A stretch of DNA of 64,000 nucleotides from Bacteroidota bacterium. GTDB lineage: Bacteria > Eisenbacteria > RBG-16-71-46 > SZUA-252. The notes beneath the pieces were generated by a model. That model was not told where the DNA came from. It worked only from the letters and a program-made list of their open reading frames with translations, and searched no databases. Shown piece by piece: positions 3,691 to 64,000 of the stretch. Position 1 is the first letter of the stretch; each line of letters starts with the position of its first letter. The stretch is taken from the NCBI GenBank assembly GCA_050257045.1, contig JBLMWD010000126.1, positions 71,258 to 135,257 of the forward strand, given 5' to 3'. The translations under genes and the position numbers were made by a program.

Positions 3691-5220
3691 CTAGCGTGCC
3701 GCGTTGGCTTTCGCGCCGCGCACGCCGGTGAGAAGGGGTTCGTTGATCGAGGTCTCGAGAATGGGGCCGTACTTCCGCAGCATGGGGCGGATCGCTTTCG
3801 CGTTGCCGACCACGACGATGGTCAAGTCTTCGGCGGAAGGATAGACGCGCTGGATGAGGGGCTTCAGCGCGTCGGGGCGGCTCACCGCCGCGACGTGCGC
3901 GGGGTACTCGGTGACCTCGGTCGGCGGCAGCCCGTAGAACGCGAGGTCGCTCAGCGTCCCCGCGATCTGTCCGTTCGTCTCGAACGAGGTCGGGTACTGC
4001 CCCTCGATGTACTGCGTGGCGGAGTGAAGAGTCGTGGCGTCGAGCCCCGACGCGCGGAAGCGCGCGAGCGTCTCGAGGGCGAGGTCGATCGCTTTCTGCG
4101 TCGACTCGGTCTTCGTGAAGCTGCTGATCGCCACCGTGCCGGGCCGGGTCGGCCGCGGGATGCGCACGCGCGCGCCGTAGGTGAGGCCCGACTTGATCCG
4201 CAGCGCCGTGTTGATCATCGACGTGTACCGGCCGCCGAAGGCCGTGTTCACCACGTCGACGGTGACACGGTCGGGATCGGTCCGCGCGATGCCGAGGTTC
4301 CCGATCCAGAAGTAGGACTGGGTCGCGTCGGGCTTGTCGATGAGGAGCACGTGCCGTCCCGTTCGGCGCGACGTGGGCGGGATCGACGGCGGCTGCGCCG
4401 GGGCCGGCTTCCAGTCCCCGAACGCGCGCCGCAGCTTGTTCTCCATCGCCCGCGCGTCGAAGTCCCCCACGACCGTGAGGATGAGGCGGTCGCCGCCGTA
4501 GTTCTCCCGGTAGCACGCGAGGACGTCGTCGCGCGTGAGCTTCGCCACCGTGGTTTCGTCGCCCGAGGTCGGCCGGCCGTAGGGATGCCCCTGATAGAAG
4601 TAGGCCGCGGCGTAGAGGCCGAGCATCGCGGAGGGATCGTCCTTGTCGGCGCGCAGCGCGTCGACCGTCTGGTCGCGCAGCTTCACGAATTCGGAATCGG
4701 GGAACGTCGGCTCGCGCAGGATCGAGCGCACGAGGTCGATCATGAGGTCCTGGTCGCGCGCCAAGAACTCGCCCGAGATCGCGGCGGTCTCGACGCCGGC
4801 GCCGGTCGAGAGGTCCGCTCCGGCGCCGTCGGTCACGGCCGCGATCTCGCGCGCCGAGCGCTTCCCAGCTCCCTTTCGAAGCATGTCGGCGGTGAGGGAG
4901 GCGAGCCCCTCCTTCCCGGAGGGATCGACGATCGAGCCGCATCCGCGGAGCGTCCCCTGGAAGGAGATGAGGGGGAGGCTGTGCTTTTCCGCGAGGATGA
5001 GCCGCGCCCCGTTCGGGAGCGTGATCGTGTGCGCAGAGGGAATCACGACGCGCGACGGCGCGGCGGCGGACTGTGCGAAACCCGGCGGCGCCAGGAGCGC
5101 CGCCGAGGCGAGAGAGGCCGCGGCGCCGACGAGCGCGGCGGAGGCGAGGCGCAGGATCGAGGCGAAATGCGGGACGAGGACCGCCGGGCCAGATGGGCGA
5201 ATATCCGGCTGGCGGCTCAT
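3691..5220 (-). CDS. M16 family peptidase, non-catalytic subunit
   Basis: TLPNG; GLASLTADML in place of HXXEH; LRIKSGLTY R/Y motif; ATG overlaps upstream stop. Confidence 0.85.
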   Translation of the reverse strand: MSRQPDIRPSGPAVLVPHFASILRLASAALVGAAASLASAALLAPPGFAQSAAAPSRVVIPSAHTITLPNGARLILAEKHSLPLISFQGTLRGCGSIVDPSGKEGLASLTADMLRKGAGKRSAREIAAVTDGAGADLSTGAGVETAAISGEFLARDQDLMIDLVRSILREPTFPDSEFVKLRDQTVDALRADKDDPSAMLGLYAAAYFYQGHPYGRPTSGDETTVAKLTRDDVLACYRENYGGDRLILTVVGDFDARAMENKLRRAFGDWKPAPAQPPSIPPTSRRTGRHVLLIDKPDATQSYFWIGNLGIARTDPDRVTVDVVNTAFGGRYTSMINTALRIKSGLTYGARVRIPRPTRPGTVAISSFTKTESTQKAIDLALETLARFRASGLDATTLHSATQYIEGQYPTSFETNGQIAGTLSDLAFYGLPPTEVTEYPAHVAAVSRPDALKPLIQRVYPSAEDLTIVVVGNAKAIRPMLRKYGPILETSINEPLLTGVRGAKANAAR

Positions 5221-6647
5221 CGCGCGCCCTCCGCGCGCGCGGGTGCTCCAGCGCTCCGCTCTTCGACCGGGATCAGCGTGCCGACCGTGCGGTTCTTCTC
5301 GTCGAAAATGCGGCGCGCGAGCGCCTGCACGTCGCGCGCGCGGACGGCCGCGTAGCGCGCGGGGCTCGAGAAGAGCTTCCGCCAGTCCCCCTTGAAGACT
5401 TCGTTCTCGCCGAGCGCGGCGGCCTTGCCGTTGATCGTCTCGAGCGTCTCCCAGTACGCCGCAAGCTGGATGTTCTTCGCCTTGGCGAGCTCCGCCTCGC
5501 TCGGGCCGTCGCGCCCGATGCGCGCGAGCTCGTCGTAGAGCATCCGCTCCACGTCGGCCGGCGCGCGGCCCGACACGAGCGTGACCGAGAAGGTGATGAG
5601 CCCCGGATCGAACCCCTCCATCACGTACGACGAGACGCTCACCGCCGCGCGCTCCTTGTCGATGAGGCGCTGATAGAGGCGCGACGACTCGCCGGTCGTG
5701 AGGATCATGTGGAGGAGATCGAGGGCCGGCGCGTCCGCGTCGCGCGGCGTACCGACGTGATAGGAGACCTCGAGGAGCGGCACCTGTCCGGCCTTCCGCA
5801 CCTCCACGCGGCGCTCCCCGAGCTGCGCCGGCTCCGCCGGTCCCACCCGCCCCGGGTGCGGCTCGGCCGGGATCGGCCCCATGTAGCGCTCGGCCAGCGC
5901 GAAGATCTCGCCCGGGGTCACGTCTCCCGTCACGACCATCGTCTCGTTGTTCGGCGCGTAGTAGGTATGGAAGTAGCTCTTCAGGTCGTTCAGCGTCCAG
6001 TGCTCGATGTCGTCCGGCCACCCGATGACGGGGATCTGATAGGGGTGCGCGACGTACGCGGTCGCCTCCACCTGCTCGTCGAGGAGCGAGGCGTTGTCGT
6101 CCTCCACGCTCGTCCGCCGCTCGGAGTAGACGACCTTGCGCTCGTTCTCGACCACGGTCGAGTCGAACGAGAGGCAGCAGACCCGGTCGGATTCGAGCTG
6201 GAAGATGAGCTCCAGCGCCGTGCGCGGAAACCAGTCCTGGTAGACCGTCACGTCGTTCGTCGTGTAGGCGTTGTTCGAACCGCCGTTCTCCTCCATCACG
6301 CGATCGAAGTCCCCGGGCGGGTGGTGCGCCGAGCCGTTGAACATCATGTGCTCGAAGAAATGGGAGAGCCCGGTGGCGCCCAGGTGCTCGTTCCGGCTCC
6401 CGACGTGGAAGAACTGGTAGAGGACCACGTTCGAGATGTCGTGGTTGGGCCAGACGATGATCTTGAGCCCGTTCGGAAGGGTCTTCTCCGCGATCTCGGG
6501 CGGGACCCCGCGCGGGGCGGCCGAGCGCGTCTCGCGCTCGCGCGGCTGCGCGGTCGCGGCAAGGGACGTGAACGCCGCCGCCGTGGCGGCGGCGAGTACC
6601 CCGAAAATCCAGATCCTGAATCGAATACGGACCATGAAGATCTCCAT
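5217..6647 (-). CDS. M16 family zinc peptidase, catalytic subunit
   Basis: GLSHFFEHMMF (HXXEH), NAYT, HPY..PVIG, YYAPNN; signal peptide. Confidence 0.92.
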   Translation of the reverse strand: MEIFMVRIRFRIWIFGVLAAATAAAFTSLAATAQPRERETRSAAPRGVPPEIAEKTLPNGLKIIVWPNHDISNVVLYQFFHVGSRNEHLGATGLSHFFEHMMFNGSAHHPPGDFDRVMEENGGSNNAYTTNDVTVYQDWFPRTALELIFQLESDRVCCLSFDSTVVENERKVVYSERRTSVEDDNASLLDEQVEATAYVAHPYQIPVIGWPDDIEHWTLNDLKSYFHTYYAPNNETMVVTGDVTPGEIFALAERYMGPIPAEPHPGRVGPAEPAQLGERRVEVRKAGQVPLLEVSYHVGTPRDADAPALDLLHMILTTGESSRLYQRLIDKERAAVSVSSYVMEGFDPGLITFSVTLVSGRAPADVERMLYDELARIGRDGPSEAELAKAKNIQLAAYWETLETINGKAAALGENEVFKGDWRKLFSSPARYAAVRARDVQALARRIFDEKNRTVGTLIPVEERSAGAPARAEGAR

Positions 6648-6762
6648 GGAACCCCGCCCGGCCGGCGGACGTACCGGTGTTCGAGTCTAGCAACCTGGCG
6701 TATTCTTGGGATCACGAATCGTGGCCAGGGCTGAACGCTTTTCGCGAAGGGGGATCGCGCCG

Positions 6763-7563
6763 ATGCCGACCATGCACGAAGTCGACTACGAAATCAAAGG
6801 GGACGATATGCAGTTCGTCCGCATCCAGCTCGACCCGGGTGAGGCGGTCGTGGCCGAGGCGGGCGCCATGATGTACCTCGAGGACGGGATCCAGATGGAC
6901 ACGGTCTTCGGCGACGGCTCCCAGCAGAACCAGGGCTTCATGGGCGCCCTGATGGGCGCCGGCAAGCGCCTCCTCACCGGCGAGTCGCTCTTCATGACGG
7001 TCTTCCACAACGAGTCGCGGGACAAGCGCTGGTGCGCGTTCGCGGCCCCCTACCCCGGCAAGATCCAGCCGATGAACCTGACCCAGCTCGGCGGTGAGAT
7101 CATCGCGCAGAAGGATTCGTTCCTCGTCGCCGCGAAGGGCGTGAGCATCGGGATCGCCTTCCAGCGCCGCTTCGGCGTCGGTCTCTTCGGCGGCGAGGGA
7201 TTCATCATGGAGCGCCTCCAGGGCGACGGATGGGTCTTCGTCAACGCGGGCGGCACGCTCGAGGAGCACACGCTCGCGGACGGCCAGATGCTCCGCGTCG
7301 ACACCGGCTGCCTGGTGGCCCTGCAGCCCACCGTCCAGTACGACATCCAGTACATCGGGAAGGTGAAGACCGCGCTCTTCGGGGGCGAAGGATTGTTCTT
7401 CGCGACCTTGAAGGGACCCGGAAAGGTCTGGCTCCAGTCGCTCCCCTTCAGCCGGCTCGCGAGCCGGATCTACGCGGCCGCCCCGCAGACGGGCGGGAAG
7501 CGGCAGGAGGAGGGGTCGATCCTGGGCGGGCTGGGGAACCTGCTGGACGGGGACGGGCGCTGA
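6763..7563 (+). CDS. TIGR00266 / AIM24 family protein
   Basis: [26 protein letters not shown] twice, [16 protein letters not shown]. Confidence 0.92.
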
Positions 7564-7598
7564 CGCCGCCCGTCCAGGGGCGCTGACGCCGCCCGTCC
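7555..7598. repeat. Tandem duplication spanning the AIM24 stop codon
   Basis: GGGCGCTGACGCCGCCCGTCC twice, period 23. Confidence 0.8.
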
Positions 7599-7656
7599 CG
7601 GGGCGCGGGCGTGGCCCGGGGCTGGTTCCCAGGACGGCGGGTGGCCCCGGGCTGCT

Positions 7657-7881
7657 TCATCTCCGGCGAAAGAGCAAAAGCAGCAGCGAAACCACCACGC
7701 TGATCAGGATCGACGTCCCGAGCGGCACGTAGACCCGCCAGGTGCTCCCTCCGAACGTGAAGTCGCCCGGCAACTTCCCCAGCCATGGGATGCGGGGGCC
7801 TAGGGTCAACCCCAGCCCGATCAGGACCAGCACGATCCCCAGCACGATGAAGAGCCGGCCGAAGCTGCCAACATCCGCCAT
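7657..7881 (-). CDS. DUF2905 family small membrane protein
   Basis: WLGKLPGDF...VYVPLGTSILISVV. Confidence 0.85.
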   Translation of the reverse strand: MADVGSFGRLFIVLGIVLVLIGLGLTLGPRIPWLGKLPGDFTFGGSTWRVYVPLGTSILISVVVSLLLLLFRRR

Positions 7882-58045: not shown

Positions 58046-58768
58046 ATGAAGCAGGATTCGAAACTCTTGAAAGGAGCAGCACTTTGCGCGCTGGCCACCG
58101 CCTTCTCATGCGGGGTCGCGCTCGCGGTGCCGGCTCCCACAATGCCTCGTTTCGACCCGGGAGCTGAACAGTACGTGACGACCGCCGTCGTGTCGCCCGC
58201 GCCGGCCAAGGCCGCCACGGGAAAGGCCCTCTTCCGCACGAGCGATCCAAAGAGCGATCCGATGCTCGCGCGCGGACAGAGCGGCGGCACCGCGTCCACG
58301 GACGACGTCACGATGAGCGCGGCCGGTGACGGCAGCTCCCATTCCTCGAGCAAGTACGTCATGTCGGGTCTTGTCCTCGCTGCTCTGGCTGCGCCGGTTG
58401 CGTTCCACCATTCCGGTGGGGACAAGTCGGTCGCGGTCCAGACGCAGACGCCGTCCGATCCGGCCAGCTCGTCGTTGCCCAATCTCGGCGGCGGCAACGG
58501 CAACGGCAACGGTCACGGGCACGGTGGCAACCAAGGTAACAACGGCGGAAACGGTGACCAGGGCGGCTCGGGCGACAACGGCGGCGGCGGTGACTGCAAC
58601 GGTGGCGGTGGCGGCGGTGGCGGCGGCGGCGGCGGCGGCCCGATTGGCGGTGGTGGGGGTGGAGCGCCGGGTGGCGGCGGCACTGAATTGCCGGAGCCCG
58701 GAACGATTCCCCTGTTGGGTGCAGGACTGATGATGCTCCTCGCGTTCCGTTCGCGCCGGGAGCGCTGA
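58046..58768 (+). CDS. Gly-rich PEP-CTERM protein
   Basis: Signal peptide; Gly/Asn tract; C-terminal LPEPGTIPLLGAGLMMLLAFRSRRER. Confidence 0.82.
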   Translation: MKQDSKLLKGAALCALATAFSCGVALAVPAPTMPRFDPGAEQYVTTAVVSPAPAKAATGKALFRTSDPKSDPMLARGQSGGTASTDDVTMSAAGDGSSHSSSKYVMSGLVLAALAAPVAFHHSGGDKSVAVQTQTPSDPASSSLPNLGGGNGNGNGHGHGGNQGNNGGNGDQGGSGDNGGGGDCNGGGGGGGGGGGGGPIGGGGGGAPGGGGTELPEPGTIPLLGAGLMMLLAFRSRRER

Positions 58769-58926
58769 TCCGCGGCACGTGATCCAGGGCGGACGCGGGG
58801 CTCGCCCCCGCGGACGCCCGGGGATCGCCCTTCTCTTCTACCCAGGTACCACTTTCATTCCCTGCTCCTTGCGCTAGCCTGGATGCGGCATCGAACCCCT
58901 GTCCATCCGGCCCAAGGAGCCTTTCC

Positions 58927-61638
58927 GTGTCATTGCCCGCGCCCGCGCACGAGCCGCACAAGATCAAGACCGTCCGCCTGGTCTCCTTCCCGACCCTCGA
59001 GGAGCGGAAGCGCCGCCTGGCCGAAGCCCACTTCAACGTCTACCACCTCGCCCCGGCCGAGGTGACCTTCGACATGCTCTCGACGGGGACGAGCGCGCGT
59101 AGCCAGGAGCAGCTCGCGGGCGAGCTCCTCGGCGACGAGGCCTATGCCGGCGCGCGGAACTTCGAGTCGCTGACCCGGTCGGTGAACCAGGTCCTGGGGC
59201 ACACCTACGTCTGCCCCGCGCACAACCTCCTCGGATGCGTGAAGCTGGTCGTCGCCTCGCTGGTCCCGCCGGGGCGCTCGGTCGCGAGCAACGGGCGCGG
59301 CCGGGCGGGAGTCCTCGCCGCGCGGCAGGTGCGGCTCGTGGACGTGCGGGACGCGCGCGAGCCGATCTTCACCGGGAACGTCGACCTGCCGGCGCTCCGG
59401 GCCGCGCTCGCCGAGGAAGAGCTCGCGATCATCGACCTCCAGGCCTTCGCCGACGGGATGCACCCCTTCAGCCTCGCCAATCTCGAGGCGGTCCGCGCGG
59501 CCGCCGACAAGCGCGGCACGCGCGTCGTGCTGGACGCCTCGCGCGTGATCGAGAACGCCTGGTACATCCAGCGCCACGAGCCCGGGCATTCGCTCCGGAA
59601 GATCGCCGACATCGTGAAGCAGATCTCGAAGACCGCGCACATCGTGATGATCGACGGCGCGCAGGACCCGATGTCCCCGATCGGCGGCGTGCTCGCGACC
59701 GACAACCCGGCCGACCACGAGCGCTTCCAGAACGAGGTCGTGGTCTACGAGGGGTTGCATACCTACGGCGGGATGTCGGGACGCGCGATGGAGTCGCTCG
59801 CGCGCGGTCTCGTCGAGATGTGCGACGAGGAGGAAGCGCAGTGGGCGATGCGCGAGACGGAGCACTTCACCGAGCGGCTCCGCGCGGCGGGGGTGCCCCT
59901 GGAGCGCGGCTGTGACGGCGCCTATCTCGAGGCGGCGCGGTTCCTCCCCGGCCACCGCCAGTACGCGGCGCACGCGCTCGCGGCGGCGCTCTATCTCTCC
60001 TGCGGCATCCGGGCTGTGGTGCCGGGTCCCGTGAGCGAGTCCGAGCACCTTCCGGTGCAGATCCCGCGCCTTGCGATGACGACGTGGCAGCTCGACCAGG
60101 TGGCCGACGCCATCGTGAGCCTCTACCGGCAGCGCGACCGGGTCGCGCGCCTCGAGCTCGCCTCGGACAGCAACTGGAACGACGAGCTCCGATTCCGCTC
60201 GGTCTTCCCGAGCCTCGATCCCTACGAGTTCGACTGCTACCCGTTCGTGGTGCACACGACCGAGCGGATCCCCTCGACCACGCGGGAGCAGCGCGCGGCG
60301 GCGATCCGGGAGGCGGGCTACAACACGTTCCTCCTCCGCTCCGCCGACGTGACGATCGATCTATTGACCGACTCGGGCACCTCCGCGATGAGCACCGACC
60401 AGTGGGCGGCCTACGGGCAGGCGCGCGCCACCGCGGCGACGAGCGACGCGTACCTTCGCTTCGTGAAGACGGTCCGGGAGATCTACGGCTACCAGCACGT
60501 CGTCCCCACGCACCAGGGGCGGGCGGCCGAGCACATCCTGAGCCAGATCCTGATCCGCCCCGGGCAGCTCGTCCCCGGGAACATGTACTTCACCACGACC
60601 AAGCTGCACCAGGAGCTCGCCGGCGGCGTCTTCGCGGACGTGATCGTGGACGAGGCGCACGACCCCGCCTCCACCTTCCCCTGGAAGGGGAACATCGACC
60701 TCGAGAAGCTGAAGGGGCTCCTCGACCGGCACGGCGCCGAGCAGATCGCCTACGTCTCGTTCGAGCACAGCGTGAACATGGCGGGCGGCCAGCCGGTCAG
60801 CATGCGGAACATGCAGGAGGTCTACGCCTACTGCAGCGAGCTCTCGATCCCGGTCTTCTTCGATGCGACGCGCGCGGTCGAGAACGCCTACTTCATCCAG
60901 AAGCGCGACCCGCGCTACCACGCGGTCTCCATCCGCGACATCGTGCGCGAGATGATGGTCTACGGCGACGGCTTCACGATCTCAGGGAAGAAGGACTTCC
61001 TCGTGAACATCGGGGGCGTGCTCGCCTTCAAGGACAACGCCGAGTGGAAGCGGAAGGCCGACGCGCTCCTCCGCGTCTACGAGGGCGGGGTCGCGGACGG
61101 AGGCCTCTCGCCGGGCGACCTCGCCGCGATGGAGCGCGGCATGGTGGAGATGCTCGACGACCGCTACATCCGGACCCGCGTCGAGCAGTCGGCATTCCTG
61201 GGACGCCTTCTCATGGAGGCGGGGGTGCCGATCGTGATGCCCCCCGGGAGCCACGCCATCTTCATCGACGCGCGGCGCTTCCTTCCGCACGTGGACCAGG
61301 ACGAGTACCCGGCGCAGCGGCTCGCGGCGGAGATCTACGTCGAGACCGGCGTGCGTGTGATGGAGCGCGGCAACGTCTCGAAGGGGCGCGACCCCGACAG
61401 CGGAAAGAACTACCGTCCCGCGCTCGAGCTGGTTCGGTTGACGATCCCGCGCCGCGTCTACACGAACGACCACATGCGCGCGGTGGCGGACGGCATCATC
61501 CGGGTCTGGAAGCGGCGGGAATCGATCCGGGGGCTCGCGTTCGTCTACGAGCCGCCGCATCTCCGGTTCTTCAGGGGGAGGTTCGCGCCGGTGGAGGAGG
61601 TGGCGGCTGCCGTGGAGACGGCACCCGCAACGGCGTGA
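58927..61638 (+). CDS. Tandem-duplicated tyrosine phenol-lyase/tryptophanase-family protein
   Basis: Two ~450-aa beta-eliminating lyase repeats; C-half has IDLLTDSGT, THQGR, SGKKD, RLTIPRRVY. Confidence 0.9.
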   Translation: MSLPAPAHEPHKIKTVRLVSFPTLEERKRRLAEAHFNVYHLAPAEVTFDMLSTGTSARSQEQLAGELLGDEAYAGARNFESLTRSVNQVLGHTYVCPAHNLLGCVKLVVASLVPPGRSVASNGRGRAGVLAARQVRLVDVRDAREPIFTGNVDLPALRAALAEEELAIIDLQAFADGMHPFSLANLEAVRAAADKRGTRVVLDASRVIENAWYIQRHEPGHSLRKIADIVKQISKTAHIVMIDGAQDPMSPIGGVLATDNPADHERFQNEVVVYEGLHTYGGMSGRAMESLARGLVEMCDEEEAQWAMRETEHFTERLRAAGVPLERGCDGAYLEAARFLPGHRQYAAHALAAALYLSCGIRAVVPGPVSESEHLPVQIPRLAMTTWQLDQVADAIVSLYRQRDRVARLELASDSNWNDELRFRSVFPSLDPYEFDCYPFVVHTTERIPSTTREQRAAAIREAGYNTFLLRSADVTIDLLTDSGTSAMSTDQWAAYGQARATAATSDAYLRFVKTVREIYGYQHVVPTHQGRAAEHILSQILIRPGQLVPGNMYFTTTKLHQELAGGVFADVIVDEAHDPASTFPWKGNIDLEKLKGLLDRHGAEQIAYVSFEHSVNMAGGQPVSMRNMQEVYAYCSELSIPVFFDATRAVENAYFIQKRDPRYHAVSIRDIVREMMVYGDGFTISGKKDFLVNIGGVLAFKDNAEWKRKADALLRVYEGGVADGGLSPGDLAAMERGMVEMLDDRYIRTRVEQSAFLGRLLMEAGVPIVMPPGSHAIFIDARRFLPHVDQDEYPAQRLAAEIYVETGVRVMERGNVSKGRDPDSGKNYRPALELVRLTIPRRVYTNDHMRAVADGIIRVWKRRESIRGLAFVYEPPHLRFFRGRFAPVEEVAAAVETAPATA

Positions 61639-61654: not shown

Positions 61655-62542
61655 GTGAACCAGCTCGCACTTATTTTGGGTGCGGCGATGGTGTGCTCAT
61701 TGGCAACCGACGCTGGCGCCACCCCGCCGATATCGGACTTGAGACTGGCCGTATCGGTTGGGGACTCCATGCGGGTGGAAGGTGCGCCGGTTCTGGTTGC
61801 CATTCGACTGTCGAACGGCGGCCACACGACAGCCTCGGTTCCACCGATCCATCCTGCCTACGGATACGTTGACTTCACCCTTACAACACAGGGCAAGAGT
61901 CTCCGGTGCGATTTGCCCGACGAGAGGGGCCGTATCCGCCAAGGAATGGACCTTGCATCTGGTGAGTCTGAAGTTGAGGTGGTTGATATCCTGCCCTTAT
62001 TCGGGCAGCAACGATACGATTCGAGAACGATCAGCGACGCCCTTCACTCACGTGCCCTTCCGATAGGCACGTATAAGCTAACGGTGTATTACAACTCGTC
62101 CTTGGACCACTCGAAATCCGGCCTCATCTCGGCGGAGTCTGTCGACTTCACGGTTGTTCCGCTCGCTTCGAAGCCCGCGGAGGAGAAGCTGGTCACGGAG
62201 TTCCTCACCGGGTGGGTGTGGAAGCAATCAGTGAGAGGACGGAATGAGTATTGCCGTAGGTGGATCGAGAGATTCGCAGATTCTCAGTTTCTGACGGAAG
62301 TTTATCTGTGTTCGGGACCATTGATGCGCTCGGTATCACCAGCATTCATTCTGGCACAGGTTGCCCAGAGGACCCCCAGGGCGTACATGATGGGATTACG
62401 GTGTCTTAGTGAACAGGTGGAAGACGGGGCGCGAGTCGCCTGGTTGGATGGCGTGTTGGCGATGAAGCCGGATTCTCTCACGAGAGATGTTCTGACCTCG
62501 TGGAAACGTACGGTACATCAAGGGAAATTCTCATACCCGTAA
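61655..62542 (+). CDS. Hypothetical secreted protein with atypical, lower-GC codon usage
   Basis: Signal-peptide-like N-terminus; many A/T-ending codons compared with neighbours. Confidence 0.7.
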   Translation: MNQLALILGAAMVCSLATDAGATPPISDLRLAVSVGDSMRVEGAPVLVAIRLSNGGHTTASVPPIHPAYGYVDFTLTTQGKSLRCDLPDERGRIRQGMDLASGESEVEVVDILPLFGQQRYDSRTISDALHSRALPIGTYKLTVYYNSSLDHSKSGLISAESVDFTVVPLASKPAEEKLVTEFLTGWVWKQSVRGRNEYCRRWIERFADSQFLTEVYLCSGPLMRSVSPAFILAQVAQRTPRAYMMGLRCLSEQVEDGARVAWLDGVLAMKPDSLTRDVLTSWKRTVHQGKFSYP

Positions 62543-62662: not shown

Positions 62663-63442
62663 TTAGCCGCTGCCGCCCTCGTCGGTGACCATCCTGCGGC
62701 CGTGGCCGGCCGCCGCGCTGATGTAGTCGCGGTTCATGCGCGCGATCGTCTCGATCGTGATTCCCTTCGGGCAGACCGCCTCGCACTCGCGGTGGTTCGT
62801 GCAGCCGCCAAACCCCTCGTCGTCCATCTGGGTCACCATCGCGAGCACGCGCTCCTCGCGCTCGGGCTGCCCCTGGGGCAACAGGCCGAGGTGCGAGACC
62901 TTGGCCGCGGTGAAGAGCATGGCCGAGGCGTTCGGGCAGGCGGCGACGCAGGCGCCGCATCCGATGCAGGCGGCCGCGTCCATCGCGAGCTCGGCATTCT
63001 CCTTGGGCACCGGGAGGCTGTTCGCCTCCGGAGCGCTCCCGGTCGGCGCGCTGATGAAGCCGCCCGCCGCGATGATCCGGTCGAACGGGGTCCGGTCGAC
63101 GACGAGGTCCTTGATCACCGGGAAGGGCGCCGCGCGCCACGGCTCGATCGTGATCGTCTCGCCGTCGGTGAAGGAGCGCATGTGGAGCTGGCAGGCGGTG
63201 GTGCGCGACCGCGGCCCGTGCGCCCGGCCGTTCACGACCATGCCGCACGTGCCGCAGATCCCCTCGCGGCAGTCGCTGTCGAAGGCGATCGGGTCCTCGC
63301 CCTTCAGCACGAGCCCCTCGTTCACGACGTCGAGCATCTCGAGGAAGGACATGTCGGGGCTGATGTCGCGCGCCTCGTAGGTCACGAAGCGCCCGCGCTC
63401 CGACGCGTTCTTCTGCCGCCAGACGTGCAGCGTCAGGTTCAT
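62663..63442 (-). CDS. sdhB: Succinate dehydrogenase/fumarate reductase Fe-S subunit
   Basis: [34 protein letters not shown]. Confidence 0.95.
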
Positions 63443-64000
63443 TTGTAGCTCCGCTGCGCGAGGTGGACCGTCTCGTAGACGAGCGGCTCGGCGTGCCGGT
63501 ACGGCTGTTTGCCCGGCCCCTGGTATTCCCAGACCGCGACATGGCAGAAGCGCTCGTCGTCGCGGAGCGCCTCGCCGTCGGAGGTCTGGTGCTCCTCGCG
63601 GAAATGGCCGCCGCACGACTCGTCCCGCTCCAGCGCATCGACGCAGATCAGCTCCGCCAGATCGATGAAATCGGCCACCCGTCCCGCGTGCTCGAGCGCC
63701 TGGTTCAGCTCCTTCTCCTCCCCGAGCACCGCTACGTTGTTCCAGAATTCCTCGCGCAGCACCGGGATCATCTGGAGCGCCTTCGTGAGGCTTTCCTGGG
63801 TGCGCGCCATCCCGCAGTACTCCCACATGATCTTTCCGAGCTCGCGATGGAACGAGGTCACGGTGCGCTTGCCGCGAATCGAGAGGAGCCGCCGCGCGCG
63901 GTCCTCGACCTCCGCCATCGCCTGCTTCGCCTCGGGATGCGTCGCGTCTACCGGCGGGAGTTTCTGCGTCGTGAGGTAGTCGCCGATCGTGTACGGGATC
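63439..64000 (-). CDS. sdhA: Succinate dehydrogenase/fumarate reductase flavoprotein, C-terminal part
   Basis: [34 protein letters not shown]. Confidence 0.93.

Follow-up and report, generated by a model that had tools for sequence, protein, structure and literature searches.

The DNA considered here (the window) comprises 64,000 nucleotides of contig JBLMWD010000126.1 (forward strand, positions 71,258 to 135,257) of GenBank assembly GCA_050257045.1, a bacterium placed by GTDB in the Eisenbacteria. Towards its 3' end lies a single open reading frame (ORF) encoding a fused, two-repeat protein related to tyrosine phenol-lyase (TPL), in which the residues expected of a pyridoxal 5'-phosphate (PLP)-dependent active site are divided between the repeats in a complementary manner (Table 1). 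The ORF starts with GTG, homologues aligning from the same N terminus in the family consensus.

Pfam finds the β-eliminating lyase family PF01212 twice in the protein, and no other family; the N-terminal half (N-half) alone scores 86.3 bits and the C-terminal half (C-half) alone 233.6 bits. The NCBIfam TPL model TIGR02618 likewise aligns end to end twice, to residues 9-414 and then 439-886. Judged by sequence, the two-repeat pattern is far beyond chance, because both halves match solved TPLs in phmmer searches, the N-half at E = 1.8e-61 and the C-half at E = 6.6e-160 (1c7g TPL), with tryptophanases ranking well below in each case. The halves are only 28% identical to one another. Their junction falls at around nt 60208-60240, TPL residue 7 aligning to residue 439 and the TPL-like stretch of the N-half ending at about residue 427; the intervening linker is conserved in the consensus of the fused family. 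An initial annotation, made from the DNA letters alone, had proposed two family repeats joined at about nt 60238, and the Pfam, TIGR02618 and phmmer alignments bear this out; the motifs it named all stand where it placed them, as judged by alignment and by arithmetic from the ORF start.

Table 1. Positions, within the window, of the fused gene and of the motifs encoded by its two halves. Residue numbers in parentheses with three-letter codes are those of TPL unless equated with a residue of the fused protein.
Feature	Positions	Strand	Remarks and basis
Fused two-repeat TPL-like protein, whole ORF	58927..61638	+	903 residues; stop included; single ORF
AAGGAG, Shine-Dalgarno-like	58914..58919	+	7 nt 5' of GTG start; read directly
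N-half repeat, TPL fold (residues ~8-427)	58948..60207	+	phmmer against solved TPLs; residue table
Short linker (residues ~428-437)	60208..60237	+	Alignment ends; model confidence (pLDDT); bridging exact contigs
C-half repeat, TPL fold, putative PLP and substrate site (residues 438-903)	60238..61635	+	phmmer; Foldseek TM 0.97-0.98
GDEAYAG, retained in N-half (residues 69-75; Glu69/Tyr71 equivalents are residues 71/73)	59131..59151	+	Alignments
AHNLL in place of THQGR (residues 98-102; Gln98/Gly99/Arg100 lost)	59218..59232	+	Arg100 kept in 9/35
DGAQD in place of SGKKD (residues 243-247; PLP Lys257 replaced by Gln246)	59653..59667	+	Alignments
LHTYGG, retained in N-half (residues 277-282; Met288/Tyr291 equivalents are Leu277/Tyr280)	59755..59772	+	Alignments
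TDSGT (from residue 481; Thr49 to Thr53; Gly52 cation ligand)	60367..60381	+	Alignments; residues 484-486 contact N-half Glu71 in prediction
Degenerate GDEAYAG remnant (Glu69 to Ala, Tyr71 to Ala)	60421..60441	+	Tyr in 3/35
THQGR, phosphate loop (from residue 528)	60508..60522	+	35/35
YFTTT (from residue 554; Phe123, TPL-specific Thr124)	60586..60600	+	35/35
DATR (from residue 646; Asp214, Arg217)	60862..60873	+	Alignments
SGKKD (from residue 686; PLP Lys257 = Lys689)	60982..60996	+	121/121; 34/35, the exception being frameshift-like L073
GVADGG, degenerate MPSYGG-loop remnant (Tyr291 to Asp724)	61087..61104	+	Tyr in 0/35
MER (Met379, TPL-specific Arg381 = Arg814)	61360..61368	+	Arg in 35/35
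RLTIPRR (carboxylate-binding Arg404 = Arg837)	61435..61455	+	Alignments
LRFF (from residue 879; TPL-specific Phe448/Phe449)	61561..61572	+	33/35

Division of active site residues between the two halves

An ordinary TPL dimer has two symmetric sites, each combining the cis residues of one subunit with the trans residues of its partner. The functional assignments available are that Lys257 of TPL forms the Schiff base and serves as the C-α base, Tyr71 is a general acid and Arg381 is a general base on the phenol, whose hydroxyl group is fixed by Thr124; the interface at which the PLP lysine is located also takes in the large domain of the adjacent subunit (PMC10170061; papers are cited here and below for those parts of their text that were available). 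In Escherichia coli tryptophanase, Tyr74 and Tyr307 reach across the subunit interface to bond the PLP phosphate of the adjacent subunit (PMC2770544); these are the equivalents of TPL Tyr71 and Tyr291, and the trans action of two tyrosines, from which the initial annotation started, is in print for that enzyme. TPL residue numbers were transferred to the fused protein via HMMER alignments that print the chain numbering of the 456-residue TPLs.

On this basis the N-half retains Glu69, Tyr71 and Tyr291, together with Asp214 and Arg217. Its PLP lysine, Lys257, is replaced by Gln, Ser254 by Asp, Gln98-Arg100 by Asn-Leu-Leu and Asn185 by Asp, and it lacks Phe123/Thr124 and both substrate arginines, Arg381 and Arg404. 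The C-half retains Thr49, Gly52, Gln98-Gly99-Arg100, Phe123, Thr124, Asn185, Asp214, Arg217, Ser254, Lys256, Lys257, Asn262, Met379, Arg381, Arg404, Phe448 and Phe449, and is changed at the trans positions, having Ala at Glu69 and Tyr71, Gly at 288 and Asp at Tyr291. Thus Lys689, Asp646, Arg649 and the phosphate loop (residues 530-532) are all in the C-half, where they are kept in 34-35 of 35 relatives, and of this set the N-half has only the Asp214 and Arg217 equivalents. The partition is as first described: GDEAYAG and TYGG kept in an N-half with DGAQD and without THQGR, and the cis motifs kept in a C-half that has lost GDEAY and the YGG tyrosine. Since the two repeats are not equivalent, at most one complete site per chain is possible.

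Conservation of the complementary pattern

If one composite site is used, the trans residues of the N-half and the cis residues of the C-half should be held by selection and the other two sets released. Conservation was assessed among 121 close relatives (at least 68% identity) and 35 fused proteins of the main clade. Nine of the 36 loci with a long ORF were left out of the phylogeny described below as near-duplicates or contig-end copies (L014, L015, L017, L019, L021, L022, L025, L027 and L032).

Among the 121 close relatives the N-half GDEAYAG is invariant apart from Ala72 (119/121), HTYGG is present in all, and Gln occupies the Lys257 position in 120. In the main clade the N-half trans residues are nearly invariant (Glu69 and Tyr71 34/35 each, Leu288 and Tyr291 35/35 each), and its cis residues are largely lost: Lys257 is found in 1/35, where Gln is present in 27/35, Arg100 in 9/35, and Arg381, Arg404 and Thr124 in none. 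In the C-half the situation is reversed, each of 20 cis residues being present in 33-35 of 35, and the trans residues being retained in 14 (Glu69), three (Tyr71), one (position 288) or none (Tyr291) of the 35.

These differences were compared with the column background in 34 main-clade rows; four distant proteins and L073 were dropped. L073, from a Gemmatimonadales metagenome-assembled genome (MAG; 4748-7840), gives matches in several frames and alone among the rows departs from the pattern at most catalytic columns; a frameshift is probable, either in a pseudogene or through long-read indel errors. The N-half trans columns score 1.00 and the C-half cis columns 0.99, values reached by none of 5000 random column sets in either case. 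By contrast, the N-half cis columns score 0.44 against an N-half background of 0.52, 92% of random sets being at least as conserved, and the C-half trans columns score 0.38 against a C-half background of 0.70. The pattern extends to more divergent fused proteins (38-53% identity): in 12/12 the N-half keeps GDEAYAG and E-G-[LM]-x-x-Y-G-G, while TDSGT, HQGR, DATR, S-x-K-K-D and Arg404 are retained in the C-half, from which Tyr291 is always absent. The N-halves diverge faster overall, with a mean pairwise identity of 0.38 versus 0.58 for the C-halves (N below C in 591/595 pairs).

Relationship to TPL and tryptophanase

Five pocket residues of TPL (Thr124, Met379, Arg381, Phe448 and Phe449) together set tyrosine specificity. 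All are present in the C-half, as Thr556, Met812, Arg814, Phe881 and Phe882, and of the 35 C-halves 33-35 have the FTTT, MER (Arg381) and LRFF motifs. The fused protein scores 587.5 bits with the tryptophanase equivalog TIGR02617, under its cut-off of 825.8, and has FTTT/LRFF instead of the FDTT/LRHF of tryptophanases. In a FastTree phylogeny of 127 rows (39 N-halves, 39 C-halves and 49 single-domain proteins), 35 of the 39 C-halves form one group (support 93) nested inside the single-domain FTTT/LRFF enzymes. A single branch has all the N-halves, themselves on long branches, on the same side, and the N sub-tree is a mirror image of the C sub-tree. A separate fusion may have given rise to the four distant members, and a single origin of all fused forms is not claimed.

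The genome that carries the fused gene (3.4 Mb) also encodes a canonical, single-domain tryptophanase-type paralogue (L002; contig C102, ORF 1099-2763, + strand), whose cis and trans motifs are intact (GDESYAG, THQGR, HFDTT, SAKKD, TYGG, LRHF), as well as a threonine aldolase. The fused gene is therefore the only TPL-type enzyme of the genome. The initial annotation had favoured TPL over tryptophanase; the conserved FTTT/MER/LRFF motifs, the nesting of the C-halves in the TPL-type clade, the FDTT/LRHF paralogue, and the alignments, in which both halves are closer to TPLs than to TnaA, all agree with that assignment.

Predicted structure and pairing of the halves

The AlphaFold model proposed in the initial annotation was built. 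The single-chain AlphaFold2 model, from a 64-row alignment, has a mean predicted local distance difference test (pLDDT) score of 92.1 and a predicted template modelling (pTM) score of 0.90, with residues 421-440, spanning the linker, at pLDDT 94-95. Its best structural matches in Foldseek are TPL chains, with template modelling (TM) scores of 0.97-0.98 normalized to the target.

When the N-half, the C-half and PLP were predicted as a complex, the interaction prediction score from aligned errors (ipSAE) was 0.92 (0.93, 0.92 and 0.92 in the individual runs), the best of three controls giving 0.00. The ipSAE mark used is reached by 58/80 solved complexes and 2/110 mismatched pairs, a calibration that holds only roughly for this job, in which a custom alignment was used and the PLP ligand included; passing it may reflect memory of solved TPL homodimers, and indicates likeness, not binding. 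Between runs, agreement in contacts is at least 94%, with partner pLDDT of at least 92. N-half residues 70-77 and 272-287 are predicted opposite C-half residues 529-533, 557-561, 694-695 and 876-883, and N-half Glu71 is predicted to touch C-half residues 484, 485, 486 and 694 (Gly52/Thr53/Asn262 equivalents). Symmetric contacts, of C-half 500-507 onto N-half 51-55, are also predicted. Because of these contacts, the predicted pairing is of the catalytic-dimer type and rebuilds the cross-subunit cation site in the model. Glu69 is the cross-subunit cation ligand of TPL, and the predicted contacts of Glu71 agree with that role. N-half residues 417-420, near the C terminus of that half, are predicted to lie in the catalytic-type interface formed with the C-half, which makes a short linker plausible.

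Occurrence of the fused form

A word-indexed protein search, restricted to 496-1581 residues, gave 1187 matches among 8000 scored candidates; the 120 matches listed are all of 883-934 residues, 68-97% identical to the query over 97-100% of its length, and come from ENA, JGI, NCBI and Logan assemblies. When 1.84 billion cluster representatives were searched without a filter, 4648 matches were obtained, of which the best 150 include 11 full-length fused representatives (847-928 residues, 38-53% identity) as well as fragments. In contigs of one genome per species 596 relatives were confirmed. Among the best 80 of these loci, 36 have one ORF of at least 849 residues spanning both halves, and six more are cut by a contig end or broken. 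These loci come from about nine phyla: Candidatus Eisenbacteria (the closest, 90%), Gemmatimonadota, Acidobacteriota, Planctomycetota, Myxococcota, Pseudomonadota, Bacteroidota, Chloroflexota and Nitrospirota.

Contigs without any difference from the window bridge the junction in two of four public runs, X1 (60174-60336) and X2 (59959-60300); these are from two studies, and one of them may be the source sample of the window itself. In runs X3 and X12 no contig across the junction was found, the contigs being short and of low depth, so that the lack of one does not argue for absence. The metatranscriptome X12 does have exact contigs within both halves; DNA carry-over is possible, and expression is not claimed.

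The initial annotation had allowed that the fusion might be an assembly artefact absent from reads and homologues; it is present in both. Adjacent lyase pairs, which an assembly or gene-calling error might merge, do occur, nine loci having an intact tryptophanase-type gene beside an intact TPL-type gene. However, the uniform length and coverage of the 120 listed relatives, the 36 single-ORF loci, the exact contigs over the junction in X1 and X2, and the conserved linker exclude such an error for practical purposes.

A two-gene form was also sought. At L040, L042-L046, L049, L055, L086, L071 and L081, which were considered as split forms, each pair consists of an intact tryptophanase-type gene and an intact TPL-type gene. 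Among 154 single-length candidates, the N-like ones (P0125, P0130, P0132, P0133, L041 and others) proved to be fragments of fused genes, each continuing into the opposite half. Neither these candidates nor the paired loci yielded a split, two-gene version of the fused TPL, P0262 (529 residues) being ambiguous.

Proposed composite active site and alternatives

From the residue pattern, its conservation and wide distribution, and the predicted pairing geometry, we infer the activity, substrate, PLP stoichiometry and oligomeric state of the protein, and pairing within rather than between chains. The explanation we favour, with a probability of roughly 80%, is that it is a TPL pseudo-heterodimer in one chain, with one composite active site per chain. 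The two halves would fold back on each other like the two subunits of a TPL catalytic dimer. The C-half would supply Lys689 (PLP Schiff base), the phosphate loop, Asp646, Thr556/Arg814/Phe881-882 and the carboxylate-binding Arg837, and the N-half would supply Glu71 for the cation site, Tyr73 as general acid and as ligand of the PLP phosphate, and Leu277/Tyr280. Alone, the N-half would be catalytically dead, and the reciprocal site, dead on both sides, would evolve freely. The expected reaction is conversion of L-tyrosine to phenol, pyruvate and ammonium, with one PLP and one site per 903-residue chain; if the TPL tetramer is a guide, two such chains probably associate as a pseudo-tetramer that has two sites. 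The suggestion in the initial annotation that the halves subfunctionalized to build one composite site is thus consistent with the residue split, with its conservation in the main clade and in the divergent fused proteins, and with the predicted cation-site contacts.

Several points weigh against this explanation or limit it. Every carrier genome among the best 80 loci is a MAG, and the activity of all members is deduced from sequence. The intrachain geometry is taken from model scores and the contact list. In the N-half an LRF tripeptide can be seen by eye at residues 421-423 and the Phe448/449 columns are gappy in the alignment, so the loss of these residues there is uncertain. A single site is not universal among fused forms, because the N-halves of three distant proteins (P0134, P0135 and P0138) still have the K-K lysines and HQGR, and two of the corresponding C-halves keep Tyr71. 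Replacement of Tyr71 affects activity differently depending on the substrate (PMC3870968), so that its loss need not abolish every β-elimination; the need of the C-half for the N-half tyrosine is strictly argued for tyrosine cleavage only. Finally, the C-half alone scores 624.1 bits against the TIGR02618 cut-off of 720.7 (N-half alone, 236.8), and the whole protein passes, at 856, only as a sum over the two stretches.

The last point also favours a rival in which the composite site serves a lyase acting on a phenolic or β-substituted amino acid other than L-tyrosine, or working mainly in the synthetic direction, a possibility we consider unlikely. It would fit with the presence of Leu, rather than the Met of solved TPLs, at trans position 288, and with the lack of a conserved gene neighbourhood anchoring a pathway. 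Leu is, however, the commonest residue at 288 in single-domain TPL-type enzymes (15/23), the shortfall of the C-half against the hidden Markov model is accounted for by the trans motifs lost there, and 33-35 of the 35 C-halves have Thr124, Met379, Arg381 and Phe448/449, roles for Arg381 and Thr124 being described in PMC10170061. It is rather improbable, too, that the same composite site forms between chains, the N-half of one with the C-half of another in a domain swap, with a non-catalytic contact within each chain. Sequence conservation is blind to the difference between intrachain and interchain pairing, structure predictors join co-evolving halves regardless of chain, and TPL/tryptophanase tetramers have a second, non-catalytic interface of N-terminal strands (PMC2770544, PMC10170061); by contrast, the single-chain model is confident as one body, including its linker of ~10 residues, and the position of N-half 417-420 in the predicted catalytic-type interface is compatible with a linker of that kind.

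The initial annotation had further suggested that the dead site may be regulatory. In its fullest form this would make the N-half a regulatory or ligand-sensing pseudoenzyme that controls the C-half through non-covalent binding of PLP, or binding of an effector, in its vestigial pocket. The replaced residues are near-invariant among the 121 close relatives (Asp243 121, Gln246 120, Asn100 121, Leu102 120, Asp176 121), and the N-terminal fold of human GLDC, with Gln for Lys, is predicted, though not measured, to bind PLP non-covalently (PMC7259800). Across the 34 main-clade members, however, the columns of the vestigial site fall below the background conservation of the half they belong to, the C-half residues needed to complete the pocket rank among the least conserved there, and the changes Arg100 to Leu, Ser254 to Asp and Asn185 to Asp should disfavour a phosphate group; we regard such a role as very improbable, and the suggestion gained no support. 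Scarcely less speculative is the idea that the fused lyases form a large series of natural fold-type-I pseudo-heterodimers at different stages of site loss, from the distant clade with both lysines to the complementary main clade, and that the emptied main-clade N-half pocket (Asp243/Gln246/Asn100/Leu102/Asp176) was recruited as an allosteric or effector site gating tyrosine cleavage. Were it true, it would amount to a built-in regulator not known for any TPL.

Gene neighbourhood and related observations

Clustering of the ORFs within 4 kb of 34 fused loci and the window gave no conserved operon, no family recurring beyond close kin; the most recurrent neighbour family occurs at five loci, all Gemmatimonadales. 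Pfam matches of the window neighbours (MsrA, an HI0933-like flavoprotein, a weak PEP-CTERM match and an SdhB-like protein) do not suggest a pathway. Scans for promoters and terminators around the gene each gave 0 sites and are uninformative at 70% G+C.

Seventeen nucleotides 3' of the fused gene is an ORF of 295 residues (61655-62542, + strand) with a signal-peptide-like N terminus and no Pfam family; its region has a G+C content of 0.59 versus ~0.70, and it has no counterpart in the locus of the closest relative (L009). The upstream ORF (58049-58768, + strand) has a long, Gly/Asn-rich, low-complexity tract and a PEP-CTERM-like C-terminal tail, the Pfam match being weak (17.2 bits, cut-off 20.7). 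On the minus strand, 62663-64000 encodes a protein like the iron-sulfur subunit of succinate dehydrogenase/fumarate reductase, with Fer2_3 and 4Fe-4S domains, which is shared with L009; a flavoprotein-subunit-like ORF runs off the end of the window.

The tandem seen at the loci listed above for the two-gene form, in which the intact TPL-type gene comes immediately after the intact tryptophanase-type one, recurs in Bacteroidota and Gammaproteobacteria MAGs. In one Eisenbacteria locus (L010) a tryptophanase-type gene is directly 5' of the fused gene. The distant clade of fused proteins (P0134, P0135, P0137 and P0138; ~864-909 residues) lacks the TPL pocket in the C-half, which has LRAT for LRFF and no Arg381. 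In its N-half P0137 has V-K and HHVRG, the other three keeping K-K and HQGR. Either a fusion event of its own or a less advanced stage of degeneration, with two part-working sites, may account for this clade. Six full-length, single-domain proteins of 443-461 residues (P0146, P0169, P0195, P0219, P0264 and P0270) keep Lys257, Arg100 and Arg404 and lack Tyr71, most also lacking Tyr291.

Comparison with known systems

Both halves have the TPL fold, and the C-half is 53-54% identical to the TPLs of Citrobacter freundii and Erwinia herbicola (EC 4.1.99.2; PDB 2TPL, 2EZ1, 1C7G), keeping every cis residue, including those of the tyrosine pocket; the predicted interface between the halves reproduces the cation site of the TPL catalytic dimer. 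TPL itself is a homotetramer of identical, complete subunits of ~456 residues (PMC10170061), with four equivalent sites, whereas the fused chain has two diverged and incomplete repeats, and only one of the two sites of its pseudo-dimer is possible. Tryptophanase (TnaA, EC 4.1.99.1) is a sister family that shares the catalytic-dimer logic (PMC2770544), but has FDTT/LRHF where the fused protein has FTTT/MER/LRFF.

The closest architectural parallel, the glycine-cleavage P-protein (glycine decarboxylase, GLDC/GcvP), is drawn from another fold-type-I PLP family. The P-protein likewise has two homologous halves, in a chain of ~1000 residues or an αβ heterodimer, with the PLP lysine in the C-terminal half and Gln in the N-terminal half (PMC7259800), the same order and the same Lys-to-Gln change as in the fused TPL. 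It belongs to a different family and catalyses decarboxylation with a lipoyl acceptor; the fused TPL matches only PF01212, and its nearest solved structures are TPL and tryptophanase. The P-protein is reportedly limited to one active site per αβ unit, according to structure papers on the Thermus and Synechocystis enzymes. It also has a split two-gene form (GcvPA/GcvPB), of which no equivalent was found for the fused TPL. The likeness between the two is one of convergent architecture, not of membership.

Serine palmitoyltransferase, also a fold-type-I PLP enzyme, has a single active composite site, the PLP lysine being absent from LCB1. In the coccolithoviruses the paralogous LCB1 and LCB2 subunits are fused in most EhV genomes and separate in two (PMC5371807). 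That enzyme differs from the fused TPL in being an α-oxoamine synthase, membrane-associated, eukaryotic or viral, and known in both split and fused forms. A literature search, with subscription journals and supplements mostly outside its coverage, found no description of a fused, tandem or pseudo-dimeric TPL or tryptophanase. The fused protein is a member of neither the P-protein nor the serine palmitoyltransferase family; it is an enzyme of TPL lineage that arrived at the same design.

Implications

Textbooks present fold-type-I PLP enzymes as symmetric homodimers that share two active sites. The P-protein, consisting of one long chain or an αβ pair, was singled out in 2020 as an unusual exception on that account (PMC7259800). 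The fused lyases indicate that the same solution, i.e. duplication, fusion, loss of one site and complementary retention of cis and trans residues, arose independently in the β-eliminating lyases, down to the replacement of the PLP lysine by Gln. Fused proteins are labelled in databases as plain 'tyrosine phenol-lyase' or 'tryptophanase', so that the two-repeat architecture is hidden. A single-chain, single-site TPL scaffold, the halves of which can be mutated independently, could be of interest for the engineering of L-DOPA and tyrosine-analogue synthesis. The family, which is widespread in uncultured soil and sediment bacteria of about nine phyla, provides a natural experiment showing which residues of TPL really work in trans and, with some distant members keeping both lysines, a graded evolutionary series.

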